This document shows, in pieces, positions 1-46,832 of a stretch of DNA of 64,000 bases. The translations under genes and the position numbers were made by a program. Source of the stretch: Chiloscyllium plagiosum (lineage: Eukaryota). The stretch lies in the NCBI RefSeq assembly GCF_004010195.1, contig NC_057755.1:9153306-9217305 (forward strand), in the 5' to 3' direction. Each line of letters starts with the position of its first letter. Positions within the stretch are counted from its first letter, which is position 1. Below the pieces are notes generated by a model. That model was not told where the DNA came from, searched no databases, and saw only the letters and a list, made by a program, of their open reading frames with translations.

Positions 1-568
1 ACACGTTATTAACAACGTGAAATGGAACTGCCAGTCAAGTGTGGCATTCATTTCCTCAATTGCAGGAGTAGTGTACATCTGGTTTCTCAGCATCTGTTCT
101 GTTTGGTTTCCTTTCATTTTAATTGCCTTGTTTAATTCATTGACAATCAGACATATGCTAGTGACCACTAAAGCTCGAAGAAGGCTTTGGAGTCACACAA
201 TTGACAAGCAGTGTGATCCTGAGGTGAAGAATCGAATGAAATCTATTGCTTTACTCTTTGCGATCTCGGGAAGTTTCATTCTGTTGTGGACGACAACTGT
301 GATAACGCTTGTAATGACCAGACTGTCAAATCCCAATTTTTACCGAGGAGACCTTGGAAATCCAGCATATATCGCCATTGAAACTGGAGCCATGCTGAGG
401 TATTTGAGCTCCTGTTCAAACACGTGCATCTATACAGTGACCCAGAGGAAATTCAGAGAAGAACTTGTGGATCTGTTCCAATCGCCCTTTGAAATCATTG
501 TAAAATGTTTGAAAATTAATGGAAGATCATTGAGAACGCACGTTGGCATTAGGATTCAGGTTCAGTGA
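1..568 (+). CDS. GPR139/GPR142-related class A GPCR, copy 1; 3' part of the large coding exon (ECL2 to C-terminus), cut by the window edge
   Basis: Frame is open from nt 2 (HVINNVKWNC...) to TGA 566-568. TM5 VWFPFILIALFN, TM6 FAISGSFILLW, TM7/helix 8 SNTCIYTVTQRKFREEL. Colinear with the complete paralog at 28854-29764. Confidence 0.85.
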   Translation, partial: HVINNVKWNCQSSVAFISSIAGVVYIWFLSICSVWFPFILIALFNSLTIRHMLVTTKARRRLWSHTIDKQCDPEVKNRMKSIALLFAISGSFILLWTTTVITLVMTRLSNPNFYRGDLGNPAYIAIETGAMLRYLSSCSNTCIYTVTQRKFREELVDLFQSPFEIIVKCLKINGRSLRTHVGIRIQVQ

Positions 569-714
569 TGCTTTGTATGATAATGGGACTCTCTTGGTAT
601 ATCTGCACAGAGATGTTTTTTTGGTGAGAATACAAATCAGTGTTCCTTGCACTTAATGCATTGTCCTGTATTTGATTTTCCTTCGTATAATTGGCGAATG
701 GTGATATTTCCTCT

Positions 715-925
715 CCGTTTGTAAATTGTTTCATACTTGTTCCAATATGGCAACATCTCATTAATGCACCCTTGGCACAGGACAATTCAGAAATATACTT
801 TGCCTCACAATTCTAGCAGCAGCAAGGGAACCTCAGCTTTTGTTTGAAAGAAAGACAGTTATAAGAACTTGCACCATCTCGCTTCAAGACCCCAGCAACT
901 GCAATAAGCTAAAACTAAAGATTCA
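715..925. mobile_element. LTR-like fragment downstream of GPCR copy 1
   Basis: Aligns by eye to the longer LTR-like segments at ~30000-30440 and ~34600-35290 (shared cagcagcaag.gaa..tc.gctttt and gcttcaagac.ccagcaactgca). Confidence 0.5.
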
Positions 926-1013
926 AAATAGATTGTCCATAAGCAGAAGCATGGAGTGAGTGAAGATCGGTTCTGACCTCGATAAATGACAGAGCAGGCT
1001 CATGCGATTGAAT

Positions 1014-3360: not shown

Positions 3361-3405
3361 CTCTTTCAATTTGTAATTTTCACTGACACTTTCATGATCG
3401 AAAAG

Positions 3406-3735: not shown

Positions 3736-3900
3736 CAAGCTTATCAATGTGTATGACGTTTGAAGCAGATTGTTGTGGGTAATTACTGAGTCAAATTTTC
3801 GTTTTAACGCTTATAGAATCAGTGATGCTGATTTCGGTGGTGACATACCAGAAAAAAAAGTTAACACTTCAATGTTCATCGACTGTGTCCTGCTTACAAG

Positions 3901-4802
3901 CAACATAACGATGATAACTGTCATTTCTGTGTGAGGAAACTGTTGCTTTTCAAAGTGCATCTTTATTTGTGTGCTTGCTATAGCAACAGCAAACATAATC
4001 CTTTAAGTCATAGTTAATAGCACTCATATCTATCACTTTCCATTGTATTTTCTCTGTCATAGGTACATTCGTAACTTTACTTCCTACATAGATTGTCTTG
4101 TGCTATATTTATCAGTCTGCTTAACAGCCGTCTCCACTTTTGGCCGCTTTGTTGACATCTGCTGTCCAACGTTATAACAGCGCTTTGTACCGTCTGAATT
4201 GCAGCCACAGTTGTTACAATGAGCTTTTCCTTCATGTGTATTAAGGATATCCCCATTTTCTTTGCATATGAACATGAACACGTTATTAACAAGGTGAAAT
4301 GTAACTGCCAATCAAGTGTGGCATTCTTTTCTTCAATTGCAGGAGTTGAATACATCTGGCTATACACCATCTAATCAGTTCGTCTTCCTTTCAAATTAGG
4401 TTTCTTTATTGCATTGACAATCAGACATATACTGGTGAGCAGTTAAGCATGCAGAGATCTTCGGTGTCACGCAATTGACAAGTAACATGATTCTGAGATG
4501 AAGAATCAAATGAAAACTATTGTTTTCTTCTTGTTATATCAGGAGCTGTCATTCTGCTGTGGATGAGAAATATGATAAACTTTGCAATGACAATACTCGC
4601 AAGCATCAATTATTTCCGAGGAGACTTTGGAAAACCAATGTATTACACTGGTGAAGCAGGAGGCATGCGTTGGTATTTGAGATCCTGTTCAAAGACGTAC
4701 ATCAATGCAGTGACCAAGAAGAAATTCAGAGAATAGATGGTGGGTCTTCTGAAATCATAATGTGCATTCATTTTAACGTTGTTAAATATGAAAGGAAGAT
4801 GA
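3901..4802 (+). pseudogene. GPR139-like GPCR pseudogene (exon-2 homolog, copy 2)
   Basis: Colinear with 28854-29764 from the acceptor region (tgcttacaag) through tttggccgctttgttgacatctgctgtcc (DRF region) and aagaagaaattcagagaatag. Several in-frame stops and frameshifts. Confidence 0.9.
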
Positions 4803-6460: not shown

Positions 6461-6464
6461 TGGC

Positions 6465-7120: not shown

Positions 7121-7164
7121 ATAGTATATGAAACTATATGAGACTTTATGAAACTGTCTACACT

Positions 7165-7721: not shown

Positions 7722-7869
7722 GTCTACACTTCCCTTAGCAAAAATGATAAACCGATTTCTTTATTCAACAATCCATCCATCTCCACAGTTGACAAAATTT
7801 GTATCACTTACGTGTAAGTTAATAGTCATATGACGCCATGCTGCATCGATATATTCTGTACCTGAGTGC

Positions 7870-8005
7870 CTCCCACCACTTCACCTGACAAAGGAACAGT
7901 GCTCTGAAAGCTTATGATTTTAAGTTCATTTATTGGACAATAAAATGGTGTCATGTGACTATTGATGTTGTCCATCACAGTCCAAAACTGGCATCTCCAC
8001 ATCAT
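7870..8005 (+). mobile_element. Old Penelope pLTR fragment with decayed hammerhead core
   Basis: CTGACAA-A-GGAAC-AGT-GCTCT-GAAAGCTT, then ttggacaataaaatggtgtcatgtga...actggcatctccacatc. Duplicated at ~20015-20145 and ~40455-40590. Confidence 0.6.
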
Positions 8006-8375
8006 TTAGAACTCTGAACATTTCATAATGCCATCTGAAGTATACCTCACTTCCATGTCGGTACCGTTGTAGAATTGTGATCCTGACTCACCTCATCGAT
8101 TGTTCTTTAACTAAATAGACGTCTATAAGAATACTATGGTGCAGTTTCGCCAATGTTACTTTCTAAACAAATTTAAGTTCATTCTTACATCTGCTAACAA
8201 TTGCATTCACAAGCGATTCAATTCTAAATCACCTTCCTCTTCCCTGACCAACTGTTTTATCACAGCTTCCCAACTAGTGTACTTCGCTATTCTTCATCTT
8301 AAAGAGGGAATCTAAAAATAACTGAGTCGAACAGCGTAGTTCGATAGACTTTTTTTTTTCTACAGCTTGCAGCGT

Positions 8376-8453
8376 TGAGCTTGGAAAGGGGCAATGATTG
8401 ATCTTCCTGACCTGAGCTTGGAAAGGGGCAATGATTGATCTTCCTGACCTGAG
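8376..8453. repeat. Perfect 37-bp tandem duplication
   Basis: tgagcttggaaaggggcaatgattgatcttcctgacc at 8376-8412 and 8413-8449. Single copy in the paralogous blocks (~20515, ~41165). Confidence 0.95.
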
Positions 8454-10795
8454 GTTCTTATATTTGCAACATTTGTGAATAGTGTAGCAATTCTTTATCC
8501 ATCGAGATGTGAACTGCTAGTAGACAGGGTGTGCTGGTAATTCTCTGGGCCGGTAGTCCAACAGTCAGGACAATCTATCTCGAAGTGTATGTTTACGTTG
8601 TTGTCACAAATGTTGACATTTTAATTGGATGAAATCCAGAAACAAAAAGTTGGACGAAATTTGTTTTCACATCGGCATTGCAGGCTGCGTGTGCATTTTA
8701 TTGCTCATTCAAGATTGCTTTTGAGATGGTGATGGTGAGCTGCCTTCTTGAACCACAACAAGTTCATTTGCTGACCCACAATGCCCTGAGAAAGGGAGAT
8801 CCTGGATTCTGTCACAGGGAAACGTGACCACTATAAATTGGCACAAAATAATATCATTGACTAAAATCTTTTTGGGAAGTAAACTTGCCACCTTGCCTTC
8901 ACGTAATTCCTGTTCCAGAGCTATGTGATTAACAGATCACTATACTCTGGGAAATAGTGATGGAATGGACCATTAATATTGGCCTAGATATCAATACCCG
9001 CATGTTGTGAATGTACAAATAAAAACTATGGAAATCTCTCAGTTTCAGCTTTAGATTAAAATATCTGAATCTAGCTTTGTATTAAACTGACGTTGAAAAC
9101 GTCTTTTAGATGATGTATATTCTCACATATATTTGTAGCTGCCCTCACATTTGATTCTCGAATGAGTGACCCCCGATTATAGTCTTTATTTTGTCATTTC
9201 TCCACTCACTATAAGCGAGTGGAAAAATATTCGTGGAATTGTTCCTTCCACATGGGTTCAAACGGCACTTTTCATGATTAAAAAAAAAACCCTCACTTTG
9301 GCTTCTGCATCATCACTGCCGGAAGTCAATCAACTCCAACCAAAGATAATTTCTCGACGACTCCAAAGTACCTCTCGTCCAGACAAATCGAAACTCTAAC
9401 TGGAAATTACACAATATATACTCTCCATCTGTCTCAAAGACCAACACTTTGAATTCAATTCGACCACCTTTTGACTAGATAACTCAAAGCATGAGTTGTG
9501 AAAATTATGAGGTGCGTGGTAAGTGTGGGTTTACATGTGGAAGGTTCAGTGACAAGTGTGCATCATTTGAAACGGAGAGACAGGAGATTTTTTTGTTGGG
9601 GCGTTTTCACGGCAAGGTGGTGGGGGACTGGAATGCACTTTTTGCAAGGGTAGTTGAGGCAAGAAACCACACAACTTTTTCGAATATTTTTGGATGAACA
9701 GGGAAAGTGTAAGGACATGCAAGGCTATTTGTCCAGTGCACGAAATTGGAACAAAGGTATGTAGCAGTGCATTTTTGCTGGTACAGTATTGGTGTACCGA
9801 GGAGTCTTTAAGATTGCAAGATTGAATAAACATTTTGAAAATATATTATGTCCCTTTTAGCCAAAATCTTTCATGGAATACTTCTGCAATCACAGATGTG
9901 TTTTCTTTCGGACTCCCAGATGTACCTAGAAAATGCAATGTTATCTATGTATGTTACCCTGACAGTTTCCTTTTCAGATAAATTATTTAAAAAGCCCTTA
10001 CAGATACTGCTAACCCTCAAACACTTCTGCATTCAGAACAAAATGTTCAAGTTTGTTTCAGGCTAAATACTTAGGTTTTCAATTTTCATTTCACCATTTC
10101 GAAATGTAAGAGGCAAATTTGGGGCTATCGATCATTTGCGATGGATGCTTACAACCGTTGCACACAAATTTTCTACCCCTGTTGAATTATAAAGTTGATT
10201 GAGAAAAGGTTGAGCTTTATGAAGCAACCCAAATTCCTCAGTCATTTCGCTGCCTCTCCTGCACTTGCGAACCTTTAGTCTTAAACATGGAAATTTACTT
10301 TTCAATGAATGAAAAGCAGAGGTAATGCTTTGTCGAACAGTGTTTTTATTTATTCATTCGTGGAACATGGGCATCTGTGGTTGGCCAAGTTTATTTTCCA
10401 TTCAAAGTTGCCATAGAGAAGGTCATGCTGAGTTGCCTCCTGAAACCGCTGTGGTGTGGAACATAAAGGGATTAACTCACCTCCTGTCTCTTCGAAAAAC
10501 AACAGTAGAAGGCAAAGACTCTATGTCTACTTTTGCAGCGATGAATATTGGATTGCAATCAGTTGTTAATGCATTGAGACTACCTACAGCAGACTCCAAT
10601 GAGATTAAGAGTTCCATGACTATTGTAAACCTTGGTCATACCTGCTTAATCTGTCGGTCAAATTCCAATCACGTCAGCACATCATGACACAATAAATGGA
10701 GATTTTTCGTCCTTGGTACATATCTAAATACATTGAATCAAAAAGACAATTAATTATCCCCTGGTATTGTTCCTTCTGGTACAGTGTGCTCCATT

Positions 10796-12075
10796 CATAG
10801 AGTCTCAGAGATGTACAGCACGAAAACAGACCTTCAGTACAACTCGTTCATGCCGACCAGATAACCCAAACTAATCTGGTCCCATTTTCCAGCACTTGAG
10901 CAAGATCCCTCTAAACCCTTTCTATTCATATGACCATTCAGATTCCTCTTAAATGTTGCAAGTGTACTAGCCTCCACTACTTCCTCTAGCTGCTCATTGT
11001 GGGCGGCACGGTGGCACAGTGGTTAGCACTGCTGCCTCACAGCGCCAGAGACCCGGGTTCAATTCCCGCCTCAGGCGACTGACTGTGTGGAGTTTGCACG
11101 TTCTCCCCGTGTCTGCGTGGGATTCCTCCGGGTGCTCCGGTTTCCTCCCACCATCCAAAAAGATGTGCAGGGTCAGGTGAATTGGCCATACTAAATTGCT
11201 TGTAGTGTTAGGTAAGGGTAAATGTAGGGTGGGTTTCGCTTCGGCCAGTCGGTGTGGACTTGTTGGGCCGAAGGGCCTGTTTCCACACTGTAATCTAATC
11301 TAATCTAATCTAAAACACACAGACCACCCTCTGCATAAAAAAAAACATTGCCACTAAGGTCCCTTTTAGATCTTTCCCCTCTCACTCTAAACCTAGACCC
11401 CATACTTCTGAGCTCCCCCACTCCCCAAACCTCTTTCTATTCATCCAATCCATGCCCCTCATGAACTTATAAACCTTTATGAAGTCACTCCTCAGCCTTC
11501 GACTCTCAAGGGAAAGCAGCCCCAGCCTATCCAATCTCTCCCCAAAGGTCAAATTCTCCAACCCTGGCAACATCTTTGTCAATGTTTTCTGAAGCCTTTC
11601 AAGTTTCACAACATCCTTCCGATAGGAAGAAGATCATAATTGCACGCAATATTCTCAAAGTGGCCGAACTAATGTCCTGTTCAGCTGCAACATGACCTTC
11701 CAACTCCGATACTCGATGCTCTGACTAAGAAAGGAAAGTATACGAAGCACCTTCTTTACTATCTTATCTACCTGCGACTCTACTTTTAAAGAGCTATTGC
11801 GCTGTGCTTCAAAGTCTCTTTGTATAGCAACACTCCTAGGACCTTATCATTAAGTGAATAAGTCCTGCTAAGATTTGCTTTCCCAAACTGCAGCAGCTCA
11901 CATTTATCTAAATTAAACTTCAGTTGTCACTCCTCAGTCCATTGCCCTATCTGATCAAGATCCTGCTGTCATCTGAGGTAACTTTCTTCGCTGACAACTT
12001 CACCTCCAATTGTGGTGTAATCTTCAAACTTATTAATTATATCTCGCATGTTCTTACCCAAATTATTTATATCGT
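10796..12075 (-). mobile_element. 5'-truncated CR1 LINE interrupted by a SINE
   Basis: Minus ORF 11382-11609 KLERLQKTLTKMLPGLE...RRLRSDFIKVYKFMRG is the CR1 ORF2 C-terminus. 3' tail near 10796. Confidence 0.9.
11000..11315 (+). mobile_element. V-SINE (HE1-type), young, nested in CR1
   Basis: A box tggcacagtggttagc, B box ggttcaattccc, V-domain, (TAATC)n tail at 11291-11313. Confidence 0.95.
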
Positions 12076-13079
12076 TTATCTACTTCGTTGAATTTTGCCT
12101 TCTTCCTCTTCTGTCTTCTATGCAACTCACATTTTATGATTCTCAAGGCCTTTCTTGGAGTTCAGTGCTGTTTTCTGTCTTTGTGAGGTGCGCAATCCTT
12201 CTGAGGAATTTTGCTTTATTCGTTTGAATATGAATATAGAAATCCAACTGTAACTCTTGCAGCCTTACTCAATTGTACGCAACCATCTGCCATTGGAGAT
12301 CAATATAAGTAGAGTTTATTTTCTCTCAGATAGTTGTGAGAGCTGGGGAAATCTCCTCCTCAGACTGTCGTGGTGATTGTGCAGAACCAAAGAATTCAAG
12401 GCTGAGTTCGATGCACTTTTGATCGACAAGGGATTCCAAGGACGTTTCAGGCAATCGAGAGTGTCAGTTCTCACGTGTAATGGGGAAACAGGAAAGGTGC
12501 ATTGTGCTCTTATTGGATCAGTGGTGATCTCATCAAATGGCAGAGTGCACTGGAGACTCCAAACAATTACGCCGCAAATCATGATTCTAGTTTTCATGTG
12601 TTTGACTCTTCCCATGCAGCATTGATCAGTGTGATAGTCTACACAACAATTCTTTAAGTGATAAGTGAGGAAGAAAATGTTTGGGTAATCCTGTGAATCA
12701 AAACTGAACAAGGAAAACAGTGTTTCATAAAGAAAAGATACATTTTCTGTCGAGGGACTGGTCCACATGACTCATTACAGAAAGACAACGGGTGGTGGTC
12801 TAATCTCAGTGTCACAACATCTCATTAAAAGGTAGTGCAACCTTCAATCGAGAACGAAGCCTGAGCAAGAATTGAAGCTGGCAGGTTGGCATTACATAAC
12901 ATTGCTGATTTGCTATCCAGTCAAATGAGCTCGAAAATGACGTCCAAGTGACGGTATTTCTGCATTTCTACTCAGGTTTAGGATTTCGCATTAAGCTATT
13001 GGCACTCTCTGCTGGCCACGTTAATGCACTTCACAGCTGCTACGTCCAACACCAGTAATTGGTGTCATTGATAAATTAC

Positions 13080-13900
13080 ATAGCGTTAAGTAGTCATAAA
13101 TCATTGAAAAGGATGTTTCAGTCCAACTGATCCATGTCGACCGCGTTCCCAAACACCACTAGTCCCACTCTGTTTGACCCATATCCCTCCAAACTAGTCA
13201 TATTCAACTGTCATTATCCAAATGTCTTTTTAAAAGTCGTAACAGTGCCTGCATCCATCAGTTCTTCTGGCACTTCAATCCACAGACAAATGACACGCTA
13301 TGAAAAATGTCGCCTCTCACGTACTCTTAAAACTATCTCCTGATAATTTAAAAGTAAAAAGCCCATTTTTGAACTCATCCCCTTTCGGGAACAGACACTC
13401 GCATGTTTATGCACTTCTTCATTTTTCAACATCTCTTGGGTCAACACTCAACCTCTGGACTTAGACAGTTTATTTTATAACTCAAAACCTCCAATCCCAG
13501 TAATATTCTGGTAAATCTTTTCTCACACCTCTCCCATTTAAAAAAAGCATCCTTGCTATGACAGTGCGACCAGAAATTCATATCGTAATACAGAAGAGGA
13601 CAAACTATCATTCTGTACAACCTCATCCCAGACGTTCCTGTTCGTCTACACAAAGTCTGAGCAATGAATAGAGCATGCGAAACACCTCCTTGGCCAGCCT
13701 GTCGAAATGTGACGCAAATTTGAAAGAATTACAGATAGGAAACCCTAAATTCGTCTATCCTCCAACATTATAATGTGCATTATCATTAAATGTATACGTC
13801 CTGTCCTTCTTTCCTTTCCAAAATGCAATGCCTCACATTGTTCCAAATTAAAGCCCATTTGCCACTCCACCGTCCAATTGATCAAGATGTCTTTGTAATT
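13080..13900 (-). mobile_element. Old CR1 fragment inside the duplicated promoter-upstream block
   Basis: Minus ORF 13441-13653 FWSHCHSKDAFFKWERCEKRFTRILLGLE. Paralogous copies at ~24840-25610 and ~44460-45260. Confidence 0.75.
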
Positions 13901-14000
13901 TGATTCAACAATAATTTGCATTACGTGCCTTCATATGATTCATCCAAAAAATACTTGCGAGAGATTTTAATCACAACAAAACATTTCTAATTTTTTGAGT

Positions 14001-14020
14001 GATGACGTGCTGTTAAATAG
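14001..14020 (+). promoter_or_regulatory. Orphan GPCR promoter module (GATGACGTG + TATA-like TTAAATAG)
   Basis: Same motif, same 3-nt spacing and same flanks (gatgcctc...tgcctgagtc) as 27589-27650 upstream of the intact gene. Confidence 0.55.
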
Positions 14021-14061
14021 AAGATGCCTCCTATTGCACTGCCAAGCAATTGCCTGAGTCT

Positions 14062-15755
14062 GTCATAGAGTCATACAGTCATAGAGATGTACACCATGGA
14101 AACAGACCCTTCGGTCCAACTCGCTCATGCCAACCAGATATCCCAACCCAATCTAGTCCCACCTGCCAGCACCCGGTCCATATCCCTCGAAACCTTTCCT
14201 ATTTATATACCCATCCAAATGACTCTCAAATGTTGCAATTGTATCAGCCTCCACCACATCCTCTGGCAGCTCATTCCATGCATGTACCACCTTCTGTGTG
14301 AAAAAGTTGCCCTGTAGGTCTCTTTTACATCTTACACCCTCACCCTACACCTATGCCCTCGAGGTCAGAACTCCCCGACCCCAGGGAAAATACTTTGCCT
14401 ATTTACCCTATCCTTGCCCCTCATAATTTTGTAAACCTCTATAAGGTCACCCCTCAGCCTCCGACGATTCAGGGAAGAAACAAAAACAGCCTGTTCAGCC
14501 TCTCCTCATCGCTCAAGTCCTCTAACACTGGCAACATCCTTGTAAATCTTTTCTGAACTCTTTCAAGTTTTGCAACATCTTTTTGATAGGAAGGATACCA
14601 GAATTGCACGCAATATTCCAACAGTGGCCTAACCAATGTCCTGTACAGGTGCAACATGACCTCCCAACACCTGTACTCAATATTCTGACCAATAAAGGAA
14701 AGCATACCAAAAGCCAATGTCACTATCCTATCTACCTGTGACTCCACTTTAAAGGAGCTATCAACCTACACTCCAAGATTTCTTTGTTCAGCAACACTCC
14801 CTCTGACCTTACCATTAAGTGTACAAGTCCTGCTAAGATTTGTTTTCCCAAAAAACAGCACCTCACATTTAACACCATCAGCCACTTCTCATGCATTGGC
14901 CCAGCTGGTCAATACCGTGTTGTAATCTGAGGTAACCCACTTCGTTGTCAACTACACGTCCATTTTTGGTGTCATCTGCAAACTTACTAACTGGACCACT
15001 TATGCTCGCATCCAAATCATTTATGTAAATGACAAAAAAGTAGATGACCCAACACCGATCCTTATGATGCTCCACTGGTCACAAGCCTCCAGTCTGTAAA
15101 TCAACCCCCCACCACCAGTCTCTCTCTTCTACCTTAGAGGCAGTTCTGTATCCAAACGGCTAGTTCTCCCTGTATTCCATTAGATCTAACCTTGCTAATC
15201 AGTCTCCTTAGGGAACCTTGTCGAACGCCTTACTGAAGTCCATAAGATCATATTTACTGCCCTGCCCTCATCAATCGTCTTTGTTATTTCCTCAAAAAAT
15301 TCAATCAAGTTTGTGAGACATGATTTCCCACGCACAAAGCCATGTTGACTATCCTTAATCAATCCTAGCCTTTCCAAATACATGTACATCCTGTCCGTAA
15401 GTGGGCAACACGATGGCACAGTGGTTAGCATTGTTGCCTCACTCTGGTACAATTCCCGTCTCAGGCGACTGACTGTGTGGAGTTTGCACATTCTCCCCAT
15501 GTCAGCATGGGTTTACTGCGGGTGCACCGGTTTCCTCGCTCAGTCTAAAAATGTGCAGGTTTTGTGGATTGGCCATGCTAAATTGCCCGTAGTGTTAGGT
15601 GAAGGGGTGAAATGTAAGGGAATAGGTATGGGTAGATTGCGCTTTCGCGGGTCGGTGTGGACTTGTTGGGCAAAGGGCCTGTTCCACACTGTAAGTAATC
15701 TAATAAATTCCCTCCAACAAATTGTCCACCACCGACATCAGGCTCATTTGTCTAT
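14062..15755 (-). mobile_element. 5'-truncated CR1 LINE (RT domain to 3' end) with a nested SINE
   Basis: Minus ORFs include YINDLD...VSKFADDTK, SQHGFVRGKSCLTNLIEFFEE and LYRTLVRPLLEYCVQFW. Confidence 0.95.
15402..15706 (+). mobile_element. V-SINE (HE1-type), internally deleted
   Basis: tggcacagtggttagc head, V-domain, tail gggcctgttccacactgtaagtaatctaat. Confidence 0.9.
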
Positions 15756-24414: not shown

Positions 24415-24520
24415 TACACACACACACACACACAGACATACACACACACGCTGAAAGAAAAGAGAGAGGGAGACAGAAAGAAAGAAAGCGAGAGAGCGAG
24501 AGAGGGAGAAAGAGAAAGAA
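24415..24520. repeat. (CA)n/(GA)n compound microsatellite
   Basis: Visible directly in the sequence. Confidence 0.9.
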
Positions 24521-25652: not shown

Positions 25653-27466
25653 GGATCAAGGATAACCCCAAGGCATTTTATGCGTATGTGAGAAACCTGA
25701 GAATGACGAGAACGAGGGTAGGTCCGATCAAGGACAGTAGTGGGAGACTGTGTATTGAGTCGGAAGAGATAGGAGAGGTCTTGAACATGTACTTCTCTTC
25801 AGTATTTACGAACGAGAGGGACCGTATTGGAGAAGAGGAGAGTGTGAAATGGACTGGTAAGCTAGAAGAGATACCTGTTAGAAAGGAAGATGTGTTGGAC
25901 ATTTTGAACAACTTGAGGAAAGTCCCCCGGGCCTGACGGGATATATCCTAGGATTATGTGGGAAGCAAGAGAGGAAATTGCAGTACCGTTGGCAATAATC
26001 TTCTCGTCTTCACTGGCAACGGGAGTGGTACCAGGGGACTGGAGAGTAGCGAATGTTGTGCCCCTGTTCAAAAAAGGGAATAGGGATAACCCCGGGAATT
26101 ACAGGCCTGTTAGTCTTACTTCGGTGGTAGGCAAAGTAATGGAAAGGGTACTGAGGGATAGGATTTATGAGTATCTGGAAAGACACTGCTTGATTAGGGA
26201 CAGCCAGCACGGATTTGTGAAGGGTAGGTCTTGCCTTACAAGTCATATTGAATTCTTCGAGGAGGTGACCAAGCATGTAGATGAGGGTAGAGCAGTGGAT
26301 GTAGTAAACATGGATTTTAGTAAGGCATTTGATAAGGTTCCCCATGGTAGGCGTATGCGGAAAGTCAGGAGGCATGGGATAGAGGGAAATTTGGCCAATT
26401 GGATAGAAAACTGGCTAACCGGTCGAAGGCAGAGAGTGGTGGTAGATGGTAAATATTCAGCCTGGAGCCCAGTTACAAGTGGAGTTCCGCAGGGATCAGT
26501 TCTGGGTCCTCCGCTGTTTGTAATTTTTATTAATGACTTAGATGAGGGAGTCGAAGGATGGGTCAGTAAATTTGCAGATGATACGAAAATTCATGGAGTT
26601 GTGGATAGTGAGGAAGGCTGTTGTCGGCTGCAAAGGCACTTAGATATGATGCCGAGCTGGGCTGAGGAGTGGCAGATGGAGTTCAACACTGTCAAGTGTG
26701 AGGTTGTCCATTTTGGAAGAACAAATAAGAATGCAGAATACAGGGTTAACGGTAGGGTTCTTAGTAAGGTGGAAGAGCAGAGGGATCTTGGGGTCTATGT
26801 TCATAGATCTTTGAAAGTGTCACTCAGGTGGATAGAGCTTTTAAGAAGGCCTATAGTGTATTAGCGTTCATTAGCAGAGGGATTCAAGAGTCGTGAAGTG
26901 ATGTTGCAACTGTACAGGACTTTGGTTAGGCCACAGTTGGAGTACTGTGTGCAGTTCTGGTCGCCTCACTTTAGGAAAGACGTGGAAGCTTTGGAGAGGG
27001 TGCAGAGAAGATTTACCAGGATGTTGCCTGGAATGGAGAATAAGTCGTACGAGGATAGGTTGAGAGTTCTCGGCCTTTTCTCGTTGGTACGGCGTAGGAT
27101 GAGGGGTGACTTGATAGAGGTTTATAAGATGATCAGAGGAATAGATAGAGTAGACAGTCAGAAACTTTTTCCCCGGGTACAACAGAGTGTTACAAGGGGA
27201 CATAAATTTAAGGTGAAGGGTGGAAGGTATAGGGGAGATGTCAGGGGTGGGTTCTTTACCCAGAGAGTGGTGGGGGCATGGAATGCGCTGCCCGTGGGAG
27301 TGGTAGAGTCGGAATCATTGGCGACCTTTAAGCGGCATTTGGATAGGTACATGGATGGGTACTTAATCTAGGTTAGAAGTTCGGCACAACATCGTGGGCC
27401 GAAGGGCCTGTTCTGTGCTGTATTGTTCTATGATCTATGATCTATGATCTATTCTATGATCTATGA
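25653..27466 (+). mobile_element. Young 5'-truncated CR1 LINE (nearly intact RT, a few frameshifts)
   Basis: ORF 25956-26864 contains GNYRPVSLTS, DFSKAFD, GVPQGSVLGP and FADD. ORF 26898-27371 is the C-terminus. (TCTATGA)n tail at ~27427-27466. Confidence 0.97.
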
Positions 27467-27588
27467 ACAATTCAAATAATGTGTCTTCATGTGATTGATA
27501 AAACAACCGAACTTGTTTTCAACTTTTGGTTTGTGAAAAACCTGCGCACAATTTTGATTAGTAAAAGACCTCCCAAATACCTTTGAGG

Positions 27589-27610
27589 GATGACGTGTAC
27601 TTAAATATAT
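27589..27610 (+). promoter_or_regulatory. Putative core promoter of the intact GPCR: bZIP site GATGACGTG + TATA-like TTAAATATA
   Basis: TGACGTG at 27591-27597 and TTAAATA at 27601, 84 nt upstream of the ATG. Conserved with identical spacing at 14003 and 39901. Confidence 0.6.
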
Positions 27611-27684
27611 GATGCCTCGTCTGGCACCAACGAATACTTGCCTGAGTCTCTCACGTCGACCAGAGCTTATCCCTCCTCAGAAAA

Positions 27685-27754
27685 ATGGAATGGCCAATGA
27701 TTCTGCTGATAAAGGAGATTTATTATCCAATTCTTGCAACCATCGGTTTCCCTG
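27685..27754 (+). CDS. Exon 1 of intact GPR139-like GPCR (MEWPMILLIKEIYYPILATIGFP + G)
   Basis: aaaATGG start. 70 nt ending at donor G|GTAAGC. The phase-1 join to exon 2 gives GCA (Ala) and TM1 ...IGFPANMMTIVVL, matching the GLPANILTVIIL TM1 of GPR139. Confidence 0.9.
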
Positions 27755-28853: not shown

Positions 28854-29764
28854 CAAACATGATGACAATTGTCGTTCTTGTGCAAAGAAACTGTGGCCTT
28901 TCTAAATGTATCTCTGTCTACATGCTTGCCATGGCAACAGCAGACCTGCTAGTCATAGTCAATAATGTAATAATTTATAGCGTTCTTATGTATCACTTTC
29001 CATTGTCTTTTCTGTCTCATACGCATAATTGTATGTTTAATTTGTACATGGTTTGTGTTATGATCAATATATCAGTCTGGTTCACAGTAGCCTTCACTTT
29101 TGATCGCTTTGTCGTCATCTGCTGTCCAAAATTTAAGACAGGATATTGCACTGAGCGAATTTCAGCGACAGTTGTAACGGTGATCTGTATTCTCCTCTGT
29201 ATTAAGGATATCCCAATTTTCTTTGCTTTCAAGCATGAACACATTGTTAACAAAGTGAAATGGAACTGTAAGCCAAGTGCGGTGTTCTTTTCTTCAGTTA
29301 CAGGGGTAGTGTACGTCTCGTTTTTCAGCATTTGTTTAGTTTGGTTTCCTTTTATTTTAATTGCGTTGTTTAATTCATTCACAATCAGACATATTCTAGT
29401 GTCCAGTAAAGCCCGCAGAAAATTTCGGAGTTACACTACTGAAAATCAAACTGATCCTGAGATGAATAATCGAATGAAATCTATTATTTTACTCTTTGCT
29501 ATCTCCGGAAGTTTCATTACGTTGTGGATGCCAACCGCTCTAACGCTTGTAATTACGAGACTGACAAATCCCAATTATTACAGAGGACACCTTGGAAATC
29601 CGGCATATATTGCCGTTGAAACTGGAGCCATGCTGAGGTATTTGAGTTGCTGTTCAAACATGTGCATCTACACAGTGACCCAGAGGAAATTCAGAAATGA
29701 ACTTGTGGATCTGTTCAAATCGCCCTGTGCATTCATTGTAAACTGGTTAAAAATAGAAAAATGA
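28854..29764 (+). CDS. Exon 2 of intact GPR139/GPR142-related 7TM receptor (spliced protein 326 aa)
   Basis: Polypyrimidine tract and acceptor ccttttttta cag| at 28853. TM2 LAMATADLL, TM3 FTFDRFVVIC, ECL2 Cys WNC, TM6 FITLWMP, TM7 SNMCIY, helix 8 QRKFR. No stops. Related to, but probably not the ortholog of, GPR139. Confidence 0.92.
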
Positions 29765-33459: not shown

Positions 33460-34370
33460 CAAAAATGGTAACGATTGCCATTCTTGTGCAAGAGAAAAAT
33501 ACCCGTTTGAGCTTCATTCCTATCTATGATCTTGCTGTGGTAACAACAGACTTACTGGTCATGGTCATTAATCTCATCGTTAGCAACATTCTTATGTGTC
33601 ACTTCCCATTGTCTTTACTGTATCATACGTATATTTGTAAGTTTAATTCCTGCATGACTTGTTTTGTGCTCGACTTATCAGTTTGATTCACAGTCGCCTT
33701 CACTTTTGATAGGTTTGTCATCATCTTTAGTCCAAAGTTTTCGACAAGGTTTTTACTAAGCGAGTTACAGCCACAATTATAACCATGAGCTGTAGCTGCA
33801 TGCGTATTGAGGATATCCCCATTTTAGTTGCCTATGAATATGAACACATTATTAACAAAGTGATATGGAACTGCCAGTAAAGTGTAGCTTTTATTCCTCA
33901 AATTTAGGATTATGTAGATCTGGTTTTACAACATCTGTTTAGTTGAGCTTCCTTTCCTTTCAATTGTCCTGTTTAATGCATTGAAAATCAGAAATATAAT
34001 AATAACAAGTAAAGCCCACAGAGGAGTTTGGATTCACGTAATTTACAATCAATGTGATCCTGAGATGAAGAATCGAATGAAAACTACTCTTTTATTCTTT
34101 GCTATTGCGGGAAGTTTCATAGTGTTGTGGAAAGCAGATGTGATAACCTTGCTAACGACCAGATTAACAAGGATCAATCATTACTGAGAAACCCTTGACA
34201 ATCCAACATATATCACAGTTGAAAGTGGAACCATGCTGAAGCATTTGTGTTCCTTTTCAAGCACGGTGCATTTGTACAATGACCCAGAGAAAATGCAGAG
34301 AAGGGCTGGTGGAACTTCTCAAAATCTCCAGTGCATGCATTGTAAATTTGTTGGATATGAAAGTAAATGA
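33460..34370 (+). pseudogene. GPR139-like GPCR pseudogene (exon-2 homolog, copy 4)
   Basis: Acceptor tgcttccag|. Fragments LAVVTTDLLVMVIN, FTFDRFVII and CDPEMKNRMKTTLLFFAIAGSFIVLW. Stops (e.g. gtttga in place of VW, cagtaa, tactga) and frameshifts. Confidence 0.9.
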
Positions 34371-38949: not shown

Positions 38950-39740
38950 TCTCAAAGATCTTCCTTTCATATAGATTAACTTCACAATGAAAGCAGAGAA
39001 TGATTTGAGAACATCTATCAGCTCGTCTCTGAATGTCTTTTGGTTCACTGCATTGATTAAAAAAAACTGAACAGGATCTCAATGTAAGCACGCTTACATT
39101 TTCGGCTGTGATATATATGGGATGTCAAAAGTTTCCTCGGTAATAACTGATGATTTTGAGTCTGGTCTTTGCAAAGGTTATCACATTTGTCATCCACAGC
39201 ACAATGAATTTCCCGATATAGCAAAGAGAAAAACAATTGATTTTGTTTTTTTTTTTCATCTTGGGTCAAATTTACTGTCAATTACATGACCCTGAAGTGC
39301 TCGGCGTGCTTGACTGTTCACTAGCATGTGTCTGATTGTGCATGAATTAATATGAAAGGAAGACAATCTGAACAGATGCTGTACACGACTACTGAAATTG
39401 AGGAAAAGAATGCCACAACTCACTGGAAGTTCAATTTCACCTTATTAGTAATGTGTTCATGCTCATATACAAAGAAAAAAAGATATTGTTAATAAGCATG
39501 AAGATACAGATGACGGTTATGACTCATGTTGCAATTCACATAGTACTAAACCTTGTCTTAAACGTTGCAGAGCCGATGATTACAAAGCAATCAAAAGTGA
39601 AGGTGATTGTGAACCAGACTGATAATTCGACCACAAGGCAAGTTATTTGGCAATTAAACTGGCAAATATGCTCATGAGACAGAAAGGACAGTGGAAAATT
39701 TTACATGAGGATGTTATTAACGATGATGTTATTGATAATC
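38950..39740 (-). pseudogene. Inverted, 5'-truncated GPR139-like pseudogene (copy 5)
   Basis: Minus strand gives tcagtctggttcacaatcaccttcacttttgattgctttgtaatcatc (SVWFTITFTFDCFVII) and NQKTFRDELIDVLKSFSAFIVKL. Multiple lesions. Confidence 0.9.
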
Positions 39741-39898
39741 TTAACATAAATGTGAGTGCAATTCGGATTGTTAACAATAAAACCATATGTAACCAATGTG
39801 AATGATGTATCTCCGTGTGATACTCTGTTTGTGAGAGTACTTGTGATAAGTTTACACCAAATGTTTATTAATAGTAGACCTCGCCAATTCTTTTGAGA

Positions 39899-39918
39899 GA
39901 TGACGTGTAGTTAAATAT
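39899..39918 (+). promoter_or_regulatory. Orphan GPCR promoter module GATGACGTG-TAG-TTAAATA
   Basis: The ~60 bp upstream match 27530-27590. Downstream sequence switches to the 18860-type block, with no exon 1. Confidence 0.5.
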
Positions 39919-40682
39919 TGATGATCGTGGTGACACCAAAAGAGTGTGGTGCATTAGTTTCCATTTGTATTCTCTGACTTAATGCATGGACCATGCAGCG
40001 ATTAAAGTCATATCAGCTATACTTTATCAAGTATTAAGAGGGAGGATTTGGCCCAGCGTTACTATTGCTGGATTATTAATCCAAACACAGTAATGTTCTG
40101 GTGGACCTTCGTTAAACTCCCACCATGTCTTCAAGTGTTCTTTCTCAATATTGAGAGACAAAGAGGAGTCAAGGAAACACAAATAATGAAACAATTGGAA
40201 GGGTTGAGTGTGTGAGTGAACATGAGACTTTCTTTTGTCGACCCCTAACATCAGTTCTGGTAACTGCAGGCGCATATACAACCACACCTTATGAATCTGC
40301 GTACATTCTCCTCAGCAAAACTAATAATTTCATTGATTTGTTCAATAAATCCATTCACCTCCACCGCACGTGTCAGCGATATTAATATCATTTAGAACTT
40401 CGTCAAAAATCACACAAAACCATGCTCCACCTGTATATTCCATGATTGTTCATCTCCGTCCACTTCATCTTACCGTGGATCAGTGTTATGAAAGCTTGTG
40501 ATTTTAAGTTCCTCTGTTGGACTATAACATGGTATCGTGTGACTTCTGACTTTGTCCATCCCAATCCAAAACTGGCATCTTTACGTCAATTAAGACTCTG
40601 AACATTTCACAATGCCATTCTTTGGTAACGTTGTAGAATTGTGCTCTTGCATCCGTACATCAACTGTTCCATTATGTCCATA

Positions 40683-40889
40683 GGAGAAAATGAGGACTGC
40701 AGATGCTAGAGATCAGAGCTGAAAATGTGTAGCTGGAAAAGCGCAGCAGGTCAGACAGCATCCAAGGAGCAGGAGAATCGACGTTTCGGGCATGAGCCTG
40801 AAGAAGGGCTCATGCCCGAAACGTCGATTATCCCGCTGCTTGGATGCTGTCTGACCTGCTGCGCTTTTCCAGCTACACATTTTCATCTC
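40683..40889 (+). mobile_element. Palindromic Penelope-derived element with a hammerhead ribozyme core at the centre
   Basis: 79-bp inverted arms 40720-40798 / 40807-40885 with 3 mismatches. CTGAAGA-A-GGGC-TCAT-GCCC-GAAA-CGTC at 40798-40825. 14-bp TSD ccattatgtccata / ccattctgtccata (40669-40682, 40890-40903). Confidence 0.85.
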
Positions 40890-43800
40890 CCATTCTGTCC
40901 ATATCTGACTATAACAATACTGTCGTGCTAATTCCCCAACTTTTGTTTCTAAACAAATTTAAGTTCATTATTAACTCTGATAAAAATTGCGTTCACAAGG
41001 GGTTCCAGACCAAATTGCCTTCCTCTTCCTTAATCACATTATATTCCATTGATTCCAAACTGTGCTGCATTGCTATACTTCACAGTTCACAGGGAATCTA
41101 TAAGTAACTAGATCATAGAGAGTAATTCTAGGGATTTTTTTTCTTCCACAGTTTGGAGTATTTAGACTGAAAAAGGGCAATGATGCATCTTCCTTGACCT
41201 GAAGGTTCTTCCAGTTGTTCTGTTTGGTAATAGTTTTACAATACTTGATTCATCGAGATAAGAACCTCGAAGAGAGAGATTGTGCTGGTGTACGGGTAAT
41301 ACACTGGACTGGTAGTCCAAAACCAAGGACAATAAATCTGGGGACATATGTTTACATCTGCTTGTCGCAGATATTGAAGTTTTATTTCAACGAAATTCAG
41401 AAAAAAGGCCAAGTTGTGGTTTAATATGGGAGTTCCTCGCTAGGCCTAAGTTTTATTGCTTGTCCCTGGTTGCAATTGAGGTGGCGATGGTGCGCTGCCT
41501 TCATGAACCGCAACAAATTCAATTCCTGAACTAGAATGCACTGAGGAAGGGAGTTTATTGTTTTCTGCCCCAGGCAATTGAGACGACTACTACCCATTGT
41601 CATAAACTGATCAAATTGACTAATGTCTTTTCGAGAAATAAAATTGCCATCCTTTCTTGGTCTGGCCTTGATGAGATTCCATAGCTACAACAACGTAGTT
41701 AACAGTTCGTTGCAATCTGGGCAATATTGACAGGAACGACTGTTAATAATTGCCCATATGTCAATGCCTACATTCTGCGAATGTATAAATAAAAAAAAAG
41801 GGAACTCTTTGAGCTTCAGCTTTTGGTTAAAATCTCTGTATCTGCTTCCTGTATTCAATTGACGCTGAAAACCTCTTTTAAATTATGTTCACGTTCACAT
41901 ATATTTGCAACTATCCTCACATTTCATCGTCATGTGAGTGACCCCTGGTTGTGAGCTTCATTTCAAGATTTCTTCGCTCACTGTACACGATTGCATAAAA
42001 CATAAAAAAAAAACTTGCAATTGTTCTCTGTATTTGGACTTTTCATGTTTCAAGAAAATAAACACTAAATTTGAGTCTAGCTTCAACAACTGGAATTTAT
42101 GCAATGGGACCAGTATACACTCTCCATCTATCCTAAACACCGACAACAAGAATTTAATTGAACAATATGGAATGAAAGTTAAATGTTCTTAGAAAAAAAA
42201 TTAGTCTATCTTTTGACCGGAAACACCATGACCTAAGCAGTTTAAATTATGAAGGACATGGACAGTATAGTTAAAGATGTTTCCCTTTGTACGAGGGTAA
42301 GTTGCAAGAGTACATAATTTGAAACTGAAATGCAGCAGTTTTAGTGGGGATTTAATGAGAAACCTTTTCACCTGGAGTCAGGTCGGGGTCTAGATTGCAA
42401 TTGCTTGAAGGGTACGAGAGGCGACAATCAACACAATTTGGATGATTAGGTGAAATGTAACGACATGCAAGACCACTGGTTCAGTGCAGGAAATTGGGAT
42501 GGTTGCAGGTAGCAGTTTGTTTATGCTGGAACAGAATTGATGTATCGAGGAGAGTCTTCTGTGCTCCATGATTCTATGAGAGTATAATTACCTTGAAAAT
42601 AAATTGACCTCCTTTAAGACAAAATCCTTCATGAATAACTTTTGCGTTCACAATCGTATTTTCCCCCGATTCTCAGTTGTAATTAAAAATGCAACGTAAT
42701 CTGTGGGCGTTTTCTTCTGTGTTTTCTTTTCAGATACATTCTTACAAAATCCCATTAACCACATTTATTTCCCTCACACATTTCAGCATTCTGAACAAAA
42801 AAATCGGAATTTGTCAAAAAACGAAGCACGTTGCTCTTGAATTTTCACGTAACCGTTTGTATTTACTTTCCACATTAAGAGAATAATTTGGGGTATGCAT
42901 CCTTTACGATGGATACTTACATCCCTTGTACTCCCATTTTCTATCCCTGTTGAATTTATAAAAGTGATTGAAAAAACAGGTTTGTCTTTATGCAGCAAAC
43001 CACAATCGTCAGTCATTGTCGTTGCCTGTCTTGCACTTGCACACCTTTGGTCTTCAACATGGAACTTTGATTTTCGTTCGATGAAAAAAGGAGGTTTCGC
43101 CTTGTGTAATAGTATTTTTTATTTACTCATTCGTCGAACGTGGGTGTCCATGACTGGCCAGCATTTATTTTTCCATACGAAGGAGGAAGTGAGCTGCCCC
43201 CCAAAACCGCTGAGATGTGGACTGTAAAGAGATTAACTCATTTTCGGCCTCCTCCAAAAACAACACTACTTTTGCAGGGTTCAAGATGGGATTTCAAACA
43301 GTTATTCAAGCATTAGGATAACACACAGCAGACTCTATTTAGAACAGAAGTTCCATAATTATTTTGCACTTTTCGTCACGTCTGAATATTCTGTGGTTCA
43401 ACTTCCAATCATATCAGCAGATAATGACACAATTAACATCGTCTGCAATGCTAGTTATATATCAAAAACCCACTGCGCTCACCATTCACGATTCTCAAGA
43501 CTTTTCTAGTAATTCTCTGCTGTTCCTTGCCTTTTTGGTGTGCACAGTTCTTCTGATGAAGTTTGCTCTATTCGTTTGATTATGAGTGTAGAAATCCACC
43601 TCCAGCCCTTGGAGCTGAATTCAATTTTGCCCTCCCATGTTCCATTGGAGACCGACATAATAAGCATTTATTTTCTGCCAAAGAGGCATGAATGCTGGAA
43701 ATATCTTTCCCAATCTGTCATGGTAACTGGGGATACAAACGTATTCAAGGCTAAGTTCACTGTATTTTTTTAGGTAATGATTCCAAGGATGTGACAGGGG

Positions 43801-45477
43801 ATCGGGTGATTAAGATGTCACAGGCAATGGGGAGACAGGAAAGTTGAACTGTACTTTTGTCAGGTCGGTGCTGAAGACATAAAGTGGCAGAATGTGCTGG
43901 AGGCTCCGAAGATGGCACTGTGACTCACGGTTTTCATGCGCATGTGTTCTACTTTCTACATTCATGTTCCCATGCAGCATTGATCAGTGCGCCAGAGTGT
44001 ACAACAATTCTTTCTGTGGTAATGCGGAAGGAAATGTTTGAATAATGGTCGGAATCTATAGATGAAGAAGGGTAAGAGTATTTAATGAAGTAAAGCTAAA
44101 CTTGCTGTCGATCTGCTGGGCCACTGGACTGAAGTCTCATTATGAAAAGAGAGAAAACGAGCGGTGGTCTAATCTCAGTGTCACCACACCTCAAACAAGA
44201 GACCATCATAAGCAAGTAGGACCTTCAAGCCAGAGCACAGCTTGAGCAGGAATTGAATGCGGCATTCTGGTATCACATCATATTATTGAGTGGCTATCAG
44301 GTCAGCTGAAATAACCCGACGTGGACGTGATCGGATTTCTGCCTTTCTCCTCAAGTCATGGATCTCACTTTGAGGTGATTGCCCCCTTTGCTGGCCAATT
44401 CAATGCACTCCACAGCTGCAACTTTCAACCTATGTGAATGATATGATTGACAATTTAGGCAGTCGTAGATCATTGAAAAGGATGTTTCAACTCAACTTGG
44501 TCCATTGCCAATGCGTTGCCAAACATAAACAACCCCACGTGCCTGCGTTTGGCCATTATCTGTCAAAAATATTCCTATTCATGTACTTTTCTAAATGTCT
44601 TTTAAAAGCTGCACCTCTGACTGCATCCATCAATCCACAGACAAATGACAATCTGTGCAAAATCGTTGCCCTAATGTCCTTCTTAAAACTTTCTCCTCGC
44701 AATTTAAAATACATATCCCCTATTTCTAAGTCCACCCCTCTCGGGAAAATAATCTCGCTTATCTGTGCCCATCATGATTTAATAAACCTACTTTATGCCA
44801 CCATTCGAATTCTATGTGCATTCAACTTATTTTTCTAACTCAAAACATCCAATCACAGCAACATTCTGGTAAATATTTACTCTCTCCCTCCAATTTAACA
44901 ACATCCTTCCTAAATCAGTGCGACAGAAATTCATAACGTACTACAGAAGAGGACTCAGTAACATTCAGTACAAACTTAACCTGGCGACCCTGTTCTTATT
45001 CTGAAAGTCTGAGCATTGAAAACAAGTGTTCTAAACTCCTCCTTGACCAGTCTATCAACCTGTGATGCAAGTGTCAAAAGTTTAAAAATATCGAAATGCT
45101 AAGTCTCTCTATTCTATATCCTGACGTAGGGCACTATAATTAATCATTCAACTCCTGCCCTTGTTTACTTTCATAAATGTAATACCTCACATTCATTCAA
45201 TGTCACTCAATTCATTTGTCACTCCTCAGCCCATTGGTCCAACTGATCAAGATCTATTTGATTCAATAACAATTTGAATTATATTTCTTCACATGATTCT
45301 TAAAAAAGAACTTGTAAGCCTATTTCTGACAAGCCTGCACCCAATGTTTATTCATAAGAACACTTACTAATTTGTTTGAGGGATGGCATGCGGTTCAAAA
45401 GAGTATGCATGCTCTGGCACAAGCGAACACATGCCTAAGACTCTCACATCGAACAGAATTTATGCCTCCTCAGAAAA

Positions 45478-46832
45478 ATGGAACGCAATGATTCTGCTGA
45501 TGAAACAGATTCATTACCGATTTCTTGCAACCATCGGTTTCCCTTGTGAGTCCTGTTTAAACCATTTATATCTAGTTTGTGTAAATTGCCTTCGAGTTCC
45601 AAAACTATTCTGGGGCTGCTATAATATTTCTCGGATCTTAGCGATGCACGGACAGATATTTCCCCTAGCCACTCATAAACCATCCATTCACATTGTCTTT
45701 GTTTGACTGAGTTGATAAATTCCCTGCTGTTGGCATCTCAAAGCGTTATGAATATCTAACATTTGCTACCCCAGTGTGTGGTGGAAATCAGTTTCTTCAA
45801 TGTGTTAGATTCACTAATTAGTACTCAACTGTTGTTCTGCCTCAAAGTTTGCCACAATTCATGGGTGGTTGGGAATCTGGAAATCAATATCTGCAATGTG
45901 TTAGAGTCAGAAATCTCATAACGTCTTAGAAGTATTTAGATGTGTTTTGTGATATCAAGGCATAAAGGTCAGTGAACCAAGTGCTCGAAAATGGGATTAG
46001 AATGTTTAGGGTTTTTTTAACCGATGAAGACTTCAATGTTTCAAAAGGGTTTTCTCTTTCCCGTAATCCTCTTTAGCTATTGACTTTCCTTGCCACTTTC
46101 GAGATCCAAAATTGAATGCAATCGCATTATAACATATGTCATATGGGGTGAGTACTTGTTGTTAATCAGTAAACCATAACATGCAGTCGGGACATTCCAG
46201 ATTTTGATGTTTAAATCTATGTACCTCTAATAACTTAGTCCATAATTGATCATTAATTCGTCTTTGAGATTAGAAAAAAACTGAGTGAACATTTATCTTC
46301 TCTATCTTTCTTACAGCGAACATGATGAGTTGTCGTTCTTGTGAGAGGACACTGCGGCCTCTCTAAATGTATATCTGTTGAGATACTTGCCCATGGCAAC
46401 AGCAGACCTGCTGATCATAAGCAATAATGTAGTCGTTTATTGCAATCGTATGTATCACATTCCATTGTCTTTTCTGTCAGAGACCCATAATTGTGAGTTT
46501 AATTTTTACATGGTTTGTGTTATGCTCGGTTTACCAGTCTGAGTCACAGTTGCCTTTATTTTTGATCGCTTTGTCGTCATCTCTTGTCCAAAATTTAAAA
46601 CAATACATTCTTCTGTGCGAAATTCAGCCACAGTTCTAACTGTGATCTGTCCTAGTGCATATCAAGAATATCTTCATTTTCTTTCTATGTGAACATCGAC
46701 GCATTATTAACAACATGAAATGGAACTGCCAGTCAAGTGCGTCATTCATTTCCTCCACTGCAGGAGTCGTCTGTTTCGTTTGGTTTCCTGTTATTTTGAT
46801 TGCCTTCGTTAATTCATTCACATTCAGACAGA
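45478..46832 (+). pseudogene. Two-exon GPR139-like pseudogene (copy 6): exon 1 45478-45545, exon 2 from 46317, 3'-truncated
   Basis: Exon 1 homolog (MILLMKQIHYRFLATIGFP, donor gtgag) with a 2-nt deletion after the ATG. Acceptor ttacag| at 46316. Frameshifts and a W-to-TGA stop. Ends after TM5, followed by a CR1 fragment. Confidence 0.92.

Follow-up and report, generated by a model that had tools for sequence, protein, structure and literature searches.

What kind of receptor family lies behind a short row of mostly broken receptor genes in the genome of the bamboo shark Chiloscyllium plagiosum? The stretch of DNA that raises this question, called here the window, comprises 64,000 nt (GCF_004010195.1, NC_057755.1:9,153,306-9,217,305, forward strand), and within its positions 1-46,832 a tblastn search located six copies of a class A G-protein-coupled receptor (GPCR), named A to F, together with two promoter-only remnants. 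An earlier sequence-only reading had proposed a tandem cluster of this composition, with four pseudogenes, one of them inverted, and had viewed it as part of an expanded, rapidly turning-over clade related to GPR139. The inventory was confirmed, and the expansion is far larger than proposed, running to thousands of copies. Motif counts indicate that the window is a small piece of a class A GPCR family with well over 1,500 copies in the bamboo shark genome. Open and dead copies are clustered together, subclades extend across species, and one young clade has the form of a burst; these features indicate a birth-and-death repertoire that grew by local and segmental duplication and lost many copies as pseudogenes.

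In the 664 kb around the window we found 52 loci, 18 with an open exon 2 and 34 broken; 19 had been flagged as open, and one was dropped because of a TGA codon. An exon 1 on the same strand, at most 20 kb away, accompanied 16 of the 18 open local loci. Besides copy A, a second open exon 2 (G000:C46:9488512-9489420) has no recognizable same-strand exon 1 within 160 kb, and may use a divergent one. Genome-wide, exact matches to a motif of transmembrane helix 3 (TM3) numbered 1,596 and those to a TM7 motif 1,116, and the reversed-pattern controls gave 0 matches each; the possibility that only a few copies exist, which the sequence-only reading had allowed for, did not hold. In the span where both motifs were listed, 47 of 78 TM7 sites also carried the TM3 motif, which gives a recapture estimate of about 2,400-2,650 loci, biased low because both motifs favour intact copies and drawn from sites mostly on contigs C7 and C8. 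The TM3 motif was present in 16/18 open and 4/34 broken local loci, and in 22 of the 30 top hits. Conversely, motif-positive loci were open in 16 of 20 cases locally and in 12 of 26 gap-free cases among the first 30 listed, where four loci with N gaps were dropped and one frameshifted read-through was not counted. By extrapolation, the genome may hold 700-1,700 copies with an open exon 2, a range that includes haplotype duplicates and some copies without exon 1.

One young clade gave 573 motif hits genome-wide, and all 130 scored hits to one of its members were 83-100% identical. In a check for haplotype duplicates, no pair exceeded 98.1% identity among 79 open genes (3,081 pairs). However, two exon-1 peptides were identical, and 47/126 and 30/123 hits fell on unplaced contigs; therefore, some haplotype redundancy remains in the counts. 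The placed hits were concentrated (68/79 and 65/93) on contigs numbered as the 13 fast-evolving chromosomes, where we infer that contig number equals chromosome number. These chromosomes are described as rich in immune genes (PMC7677710).

The assignment of the family to class A rests on gene C, which matched the Pfam profile 7tm_1 (E 5.5e-20) and carries the motifs expected of that class (N1.50, D2.50, D/ERY, P5.50, W6.48 and NxxxY), with DRF, WxT and NTxxY as variants; the open frame of copy A also matched 7tm_1 in the profile search. No other Pfam profile matched gene C, including 7tm_4, the odorant receptor profile. Its exon 2 was predicted by AlphaFold2 to form seven helices and a hairpin in extracellular loop 2 (ECL2), with a mean predicted local distance difference test value of 89.7, and a fold search returned generic class A matches only (peptide and chemokine receptors). 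Its best sequence match in the PDB was GPR139 (E 2e-6; human structure 7vug). Nevertheless, gene C is not the shark GPR139, an outcome that had been considered beforehand: true GPR139 is a single gene elsewhere (G000:C21:58.73 Mb; 85% between shark and human), as is GPR142 (G000:C24:44.31 Mb), and the other 125 scored hits were 23-38% identical to GPR139. In two trees the expanded genes formed one clade apart from GPR139 and GPR142, with Shimodaira-Hasegawa-like approximate likelihood ratio test (SH-aLRT) values of 100 and 94; both trees were quick searches with SH-aLRT support only and long-branch warnings, and invertebrate rows formed the outgroup of the second. Membership in the wider GPR139/GPR142 clade is indicated by mutual best sequence matches and by a phase-1 intron before the TM1 asparagine, the exon-2 acceptor falling in the same codon and phase before N1.50 in the family, shark GPR139 and GPR142. 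The shark family thus shares with GPR139 and GPR142 the class A peptide-type branch and this acceptor position, but those genes are single-copy and conserved, whereas the family comprises thousands of copies, has other pocket residues and keeps the disulfide pair (C3.25 in 79/79 open genes and the ECL2 cysteine in 78/79; GPR139 and GPR142 lack both).

The sister of the shark family was a salamander gene (P0451/P0508/P0511; SH-aLRT 100), followed by coelacanth P0465 together with teleost P0474 (89) and then by the lineage of locus L037 (93); the deeper branching order is uncertain because of long branches. The salamander gene forms one 90%-identity cluster over three salamander genera. These salamander, coelacanth/teleost and L037 genes have a TM1-leading N-terminal motif similar to that of the shark family, but they are slowly evolving and apparently low-copy. 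Besides GPR139 and GPR142, L037 (G000:C98156:21311-22198) is thus a third, separate gene of GPR139-like type that has been conserved; E3.32, H5.43 and R6.51 are retained in it, whereas position 6.48 is Ser. Its orthologues occur in sharks, rays, chimaera, coelacanth, lungfish, sturgeon, gar and many teleosts, and the named entries within the 120 listed rows include no tetrapod. Members of the expanded family were named from several shark orders, skates, rays and Callorhinchus (30 of 150 listed 50%-cluster representatives were assigned to organism names), and therefore the expansion predates the chimaera split. The term lineage-specific, applied to the cluster at the outset, is thus apt for the expansion, which belongs to cartilaginous fishes; given the salamander sister gene, it does not fit the gene lineage.

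The best 120 of 1,207 protein hits were all from sharks and bore borrowed automatic names. RefSeq models called 'probable G-protein coupled receptor 139', 'allatostatin-A receptor-like', 'capa receptor-like' and 'vasopressin V2 receptor-like' are members of the shark family; such names are automatic, correspond to no described family, and mask both its size and its distinctness from GPR139. The cluster of one receptor model of the family (P0377, Chiloscyllium punctatum) includes a RING-domain protein, which could reflect either a fusion made in gene modelling or genuine read-through.

The strongest signal of diversification was observed in the largest subfamily, for which 28 genes with a median nucleotide identity of 93% were placed in an almost gap-free alignment of their own, showing a constant frame and discrete hypervariable columns. 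The comparison of site models M2a and M1a gave 2dL = 507, with a ratio of nonsynonymous to synonymous rates (omega, dN/dS) of 8.7 at 6% of sites; the site-model code was self-written, and relative branch lengths were fixed. All 14 sites with a posterior >0.95 were extracellular, although extracellular segments make up 94 of the 293 columns: 2.68, one in ECL1, five in ECL2, 6.58, 6.61, 6.62, two in ECL3, 7.32 and 7.35. The tree of this subfamily is star-like (13% internal length), and a star tree recovered 13 of the 14 sites. Tree-free ratios of nonsynonymous to synonymous differences per site (pN/pS) were 1.24 in the ECL2 region, 1.18 in the ECL3 region and 0.56 around ECL1, against 0.25-0.31 in four inner segments. 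Across 52 genes, the entropy at 26 pocket positions was 2.23 bits, compared with 1.32 at 141 other helix positions (p = 1e-6). From the variable pocket and the selection on outer sites, it follows that the subfamilies differ in the pocket while the youngest one diversifies the outer vestibule; this pattern would suit ligands bigger than single amino acids. In turn, gene C is under purifying selection (omega about 0.4; pairwise values of 0.31-0.44), and its subfamily is older and quieter than the largest one.

The largest subfamily also differs in gene structure. In ten of ten genes no coding exon 1 was found within 18.5 kb of exon 2; however, a search with the N-terminus of the clade gave at least 150 scored exon-1 hits, and the idea that these genes lack an exon 1 or share a single one was rejected. 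In the four closest pairings on contig C8, exon 1 lay 25-86 kb upstream of an exon 2 (partial lists, 29 exon-1 places tested), so that long first introns explain the absence of a nearby exon 1. Long introns, along with fragmented contigs, are probably also the cause of the family's poor annotation. Exon 1 encodes 46-96 residues in 10 of 11 readable loci (12 fetched); the very short N-termini that had been attributed to these receptors are therefore a property of the window's subfamily and not of the largest clade. In loci L186-L197 the N-terminus contains one to four copies of a variable 12-residue unit that includes an N-glycosylation sequon. Upstream of exon 2, members share homologous DNA, 80-90% identical, that can extend through all of the 18 kb fetched. 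Nine of ten genes (L164-L183) have an in-frame ATG within the splice-acceptor tract of exon 2, nine codons before the TM1 asparagine, and the tenth has a frame-preserving insertion of 3 bases at that site; a product made from exon 2 alone, its TM1 shortened, is conceivable.

Transcripts of this subfamily were detected in a single-cell run (X5), where one member used as query at 80% likeness matched 325 reads in 13.0 million records, distributed over falling identity bands as 5, 58, 115 and 147. Seventeen of these reads terminate in poly(T) at a point 26 nt beyond a coding-strand AATAAA, and a genomic A-run at this point was absent from all 17 paralogues in which the site could be located. Members of the largest subfamily are thus polyadenylated, with tails that are not templated. 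In another run (X7), 77 contigs matched a member of the subfamily, one of them joining a genomic GT donor to the exon-2 acceptor. That donor (L184, G000:C95777:333-362) was seen in a single contig, is distinct from the conserved exon 1, and lies inside a repeat-like segment that in paralogues is located about 2 kb upstream of exon 2. Pseudogene D was matched by a single read pair of X5.

Our favoured interpretation, held tentatively, is that the family forms a germline-encoded repertoire with which immune or barrier cells detect foreign molecules the size of peptides. In mammals, the formyl-peptide receptors (FPR) and the Mas-related GPCRs (MRGPR) are tandem, fast-turnover class A receptors for foreign peptides, and the shark family is larger than either by an order of magnitude or more. 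The likeness to them would be one of function and belongs to this interpretation; kinship beyond class A is not claimed. We favour an immune role because the selection resembles an arms race, because of the chromosomes on which the copies lie, and because MAS1 and its relatives are reported to be missing in cartilaginous fishes (PMC8455134). Each receptor would bind its own ligand at the outer vestibule (2.68, ECL1, ECL2, 6.58-6.62, ECL3, 7.32 and 7.35), the conserved intracellular loops would signal through a shared G protein as in formyl-peptide and Mas-related receptors, and pathogens or parasites would keep the copies turning over in an arms race.

Several observations weigh against such a detector repertoire. 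Ten genes of the window's own subfamily gave an omega of 0.39 with no positively selected class (M2a vs M1a, 2dL = 0). This omega is well below 1, and the ratio near 1 in open copies that the sequence-only reading had named as counting against it did not occur. Synonymous differences per site (pS) reached 0.15-0.17 in two of the three hypervariable segments, compared with 0.07-0.10 elsewhere, and omega is probably raised there by gene conversion or multi-base changes; moreover, a single query supplied the 28 genes as its best hits. Run X6, which shares its sample with X5, contained 0 reads of the largest subfamily. For gene C, X5, X6 and X7 each yielded 0 reads, an uninformative result, as 2% of X5 and 6% of X6 were read. 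The RNA runs carry no tissue label, hence the expression is not placed in immune cells. Names of the family were not found in four supplementary files of the bamboo-shark immune-cell atlas (PMC11372145), where genes are partly LOC-numbered. Finally, fast-evolving chromosomes may tolerate any expansion.

A possible, if doubtful, alternative to the immune-detector view is a chemosensory repertoire of the nose, taste papillae or skin, with one or a few members per neuron, that reads peptides or pheromones of prey and conspecifics. Size, clustering, pseudogene load and a variable pocket are shared with the OR, TAAR, V1R and V2R families, odorant and vomeronasal receptors included, although the ancestry is different (7tm_1 only); on the other hand, an omega near 9 on outer loops exceeds the values usual for odorant receptors. 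Cartilaginous fishes possess many olfactory neurons, yet their complete olfactory receptor genes average only 43.8 (range 20-62 in 10 species; PMC10869828), and it is this small known repertoire, along with the chemosensory expansions of related protostome receptors, that gives the alternative its weight. The nearest invertebrate look-alikes of the shark family are FMRFamide-receptor-like and Srw clusters, with feature scores of 0.96-0.98 and TM-scores of 0.82-0.83 in the Atlas comparison; these Atlas neighbours carry the PF10324 (Srw) domain, for which gene C had no match. The srw receptors are nematode chemoreceptors derived from peptide receptors, and the domain occurs in 29 of 90 chemosensory-like genes of Aplysia (PMC3963977). 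Nematode srw and molluscan FMRFamide-receptor-like genes are independent mass expansions from peptide-receptor ancestors (PMC3963977, PMC11589774), but they are protostome families, and the invertebrate rows, used as outgroup, fall outside GPR139/GPR142 and the shark family in the tree. Against the chemosensory view, the olfactory neurons of the catshark consist almost entirely of microvillous Go/TRPC2 cells, which fits the use of V2R (PMC10116579), and the top 50 genes of an olfactory library include no GPCR (PMC11979771); sparse chemosensory expression would still be compatible with both observations.

It is unlikely that most copies are passengers of segmental duplication on unstable chromosomes, a few performing ordinary signalling while the rest drift. 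The broken state of 34 of the 52 local loci, two further loci without a nearby exon 1, the long upstream DNA shared at 80-90% and the star-like tree of the largest subfamily agree with drift; the purifying selection on gene C and its relatives, the contrast in pN/pS between inner segments and an outside near 1.2, the many subfamilies common to shark orders, rays and chimaera, and the non-templated poly(A) tails do not. Strong positive selection is likewise a mark of reproductive proteins, and could reflect sexual conflict over outer diversity if the receptors served reproduction or self/non-self recognition through gametes or through seminal or egg-case peptides. We consider this quite unlikely, since the connection is one of distant kinship: insect MIP/sex-peptide receptors lie within the wider clade (PMC8514136), and about 450 FMRFamide-receptor-like genes of a snail are linked to reproduction (PMC11589774). 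Least probable of all is the sensing of aromatic amino acids in the manner of GPR139 and GPR142, which the sequence-only reading had advanced by analogy and which the PDB match and the common phase-1 acceptor would accommodate. The Trp/Phe site of GPR139 is lined by F3.33, H5.43, W6.48, R6.51 and N7.39 (PMC5430874), and gene C retains one of the five, W6.48; among 51 members outside the largest subfamily, F3.33 was found in 6, H5.43 in 16 and N7.39 in 6, with R6.51 outside the six commonest residues. Added to the low identity to GPR139 and to the TM3-ECL2 cysteines that GPR139 and GPR142 lack, this makes the amino-acid proposal very improbable.

The window itself illustrates how such copies arise and decay (Table 1). 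By self-alignment, the A-B pair resembles the C-D pair, the DNA downstream of B resembles inverted copy E, and a block of 5-6 kb upstream occurs in triplicate. Gene C, the complete copy already recognized by the sequence-only reading, has two exons joined by a GT-AG phase-1 intron of about 1.1 kb. In DNA contigs of run X1 it was recovered at 95-100% identity with patchy coverage and 0 coding-exon indels among the differences listed. An AT-rich box at the position of its TATA-like box was present in most of 23 aligned exon-1 regions; a CRE-like (cAMP response element) sequence beside it was dropped as a candidate, as it is not conserved across the 23 aligned promoters. Copy A had been described as open but cut by the window edge. 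Its exon 2 does stay open beyond the edge, but about 280 bp that in C hold the core promoter and the whole exon 1 are replaced in A by about 20 bp, with no assembly gap nearby, and the nearest same-strand exon 1 is 66 kb off. Therefore, the window holds one complete copy of six. Because the branch of copy A still has a dN/dS of about 0.45, the loss of its exon 1 was likely recent. Positions 46844-64000 contain no further receptor copy, only LINE (long interspersed nuclear element) endonuclease and reverse transcriptase fragments, short interspersed repeats and CA-rich tracts, and Rfam gave 0 matches across the whole window. Two small tandem duplications were also noted, at 8376-8453 (37-bp unit x2.1, 100% match) and at 37335-37531 (101-bp unit x2, 82%).

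Table 1. Receptor copies, promoter remnants and associated features along the window.
Feature	Position	Strand	Remarks
Copy A, 3' part of open exon 2	1..568	+	Exon 1 and core promoter deleted upstream of window; likely young pseudogene
Copy B, pseudogene exon 2	3900..4802	+	2 frameshifts, 8 stops; exon 1 not found
Upstream block, copy 1 of 3	7725..13957	+	About 68% identical to 19990-25276 and 40302-45314
Promoter-only remnant 1	13954..14065	+	Followed by repeat sequence; no exon 1 coding part
Upstream block, copy 2	19990..25276	+	Precedes gene C
LINE reverse-transcriptase fragment	25917..27368	+	Directly upstream of gene C promoter
Gene C promoter/5' leader	27530..27684	+	TATA-like box at about 27601
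Gene C exon 1	27685..27754	+	23 codons + 1 nt; phase-1 GT donor
Gene C exon 2	28854..29764	+	326-aa seven-helix receptor once spliced
Copy D, pseudogene exon 2	33460..34370	+	5 frameshifts, 4 stops
Copy E, inverted pseudogene, 5'-truncated	38981..39735	-	6 frameshifts, 5 stops
Promoter-only remnant 2	39838..39918	+	Gene-less
Upstream block, copy 3	40302..45314	+	Precedes copy F
Copy F exon 1	45478..45545	+	2-bp deletion
Copy F exon 2	46317..46832	+	4 frameshifting indels, 1 in-frame stop; adjoins LINE endonuclease frame 46844-47755

In the literature covered, which did not extend to subscription journals, we found no description of this family. Term look-ups gave no mention in four shark genome papers (PMC10620051, PMC13100897, PMC8455134, PMC7677710), the catshark paper (PMC11979771), a GPR139 review (PMC12208981) and the immune atlas (PMC11372145), and a search by name of supplementary files (12 of the 24 of PMC8455134 and 6 of PMC13100897) returned no match. 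The genes are, nonetheless, already in RefSeq under borrowed names, and expanded sensor repertoires are a known kind of system, here derived from a different receptor branch.

The size of the family would be unexpected to specialists in sharks. A 'relative paucity' of GPCRs has been credited to cartilaginous fishes (PMC8455134), and around 1,000 open copies in one shark, in a family common to rays and chimaera, would contradict this GPCR-poor picture, which includes some 44 olfactory receptor genes (PMC10869828). We consider it probable that these genes constitute an independent GPCR sensor repertoire from the GPR139 branch, with about 1,000 intact genes in this shark and antibody-like hypervariable outer positions, and that it represents either the greater, so far missing, part of chemoreception in sharks or innate receptors on a scale not known from other vertebrates; in both cases, the view of sharks as GPCR-poor would be overturned. 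The family offers a direct handle on two matters: by what means sharks tell chemicals apart when their known receptors are so few, and what takes the place of Mas-related receptors and other innate sensors of that sort in the oldest lineage of jawed vertebrates.

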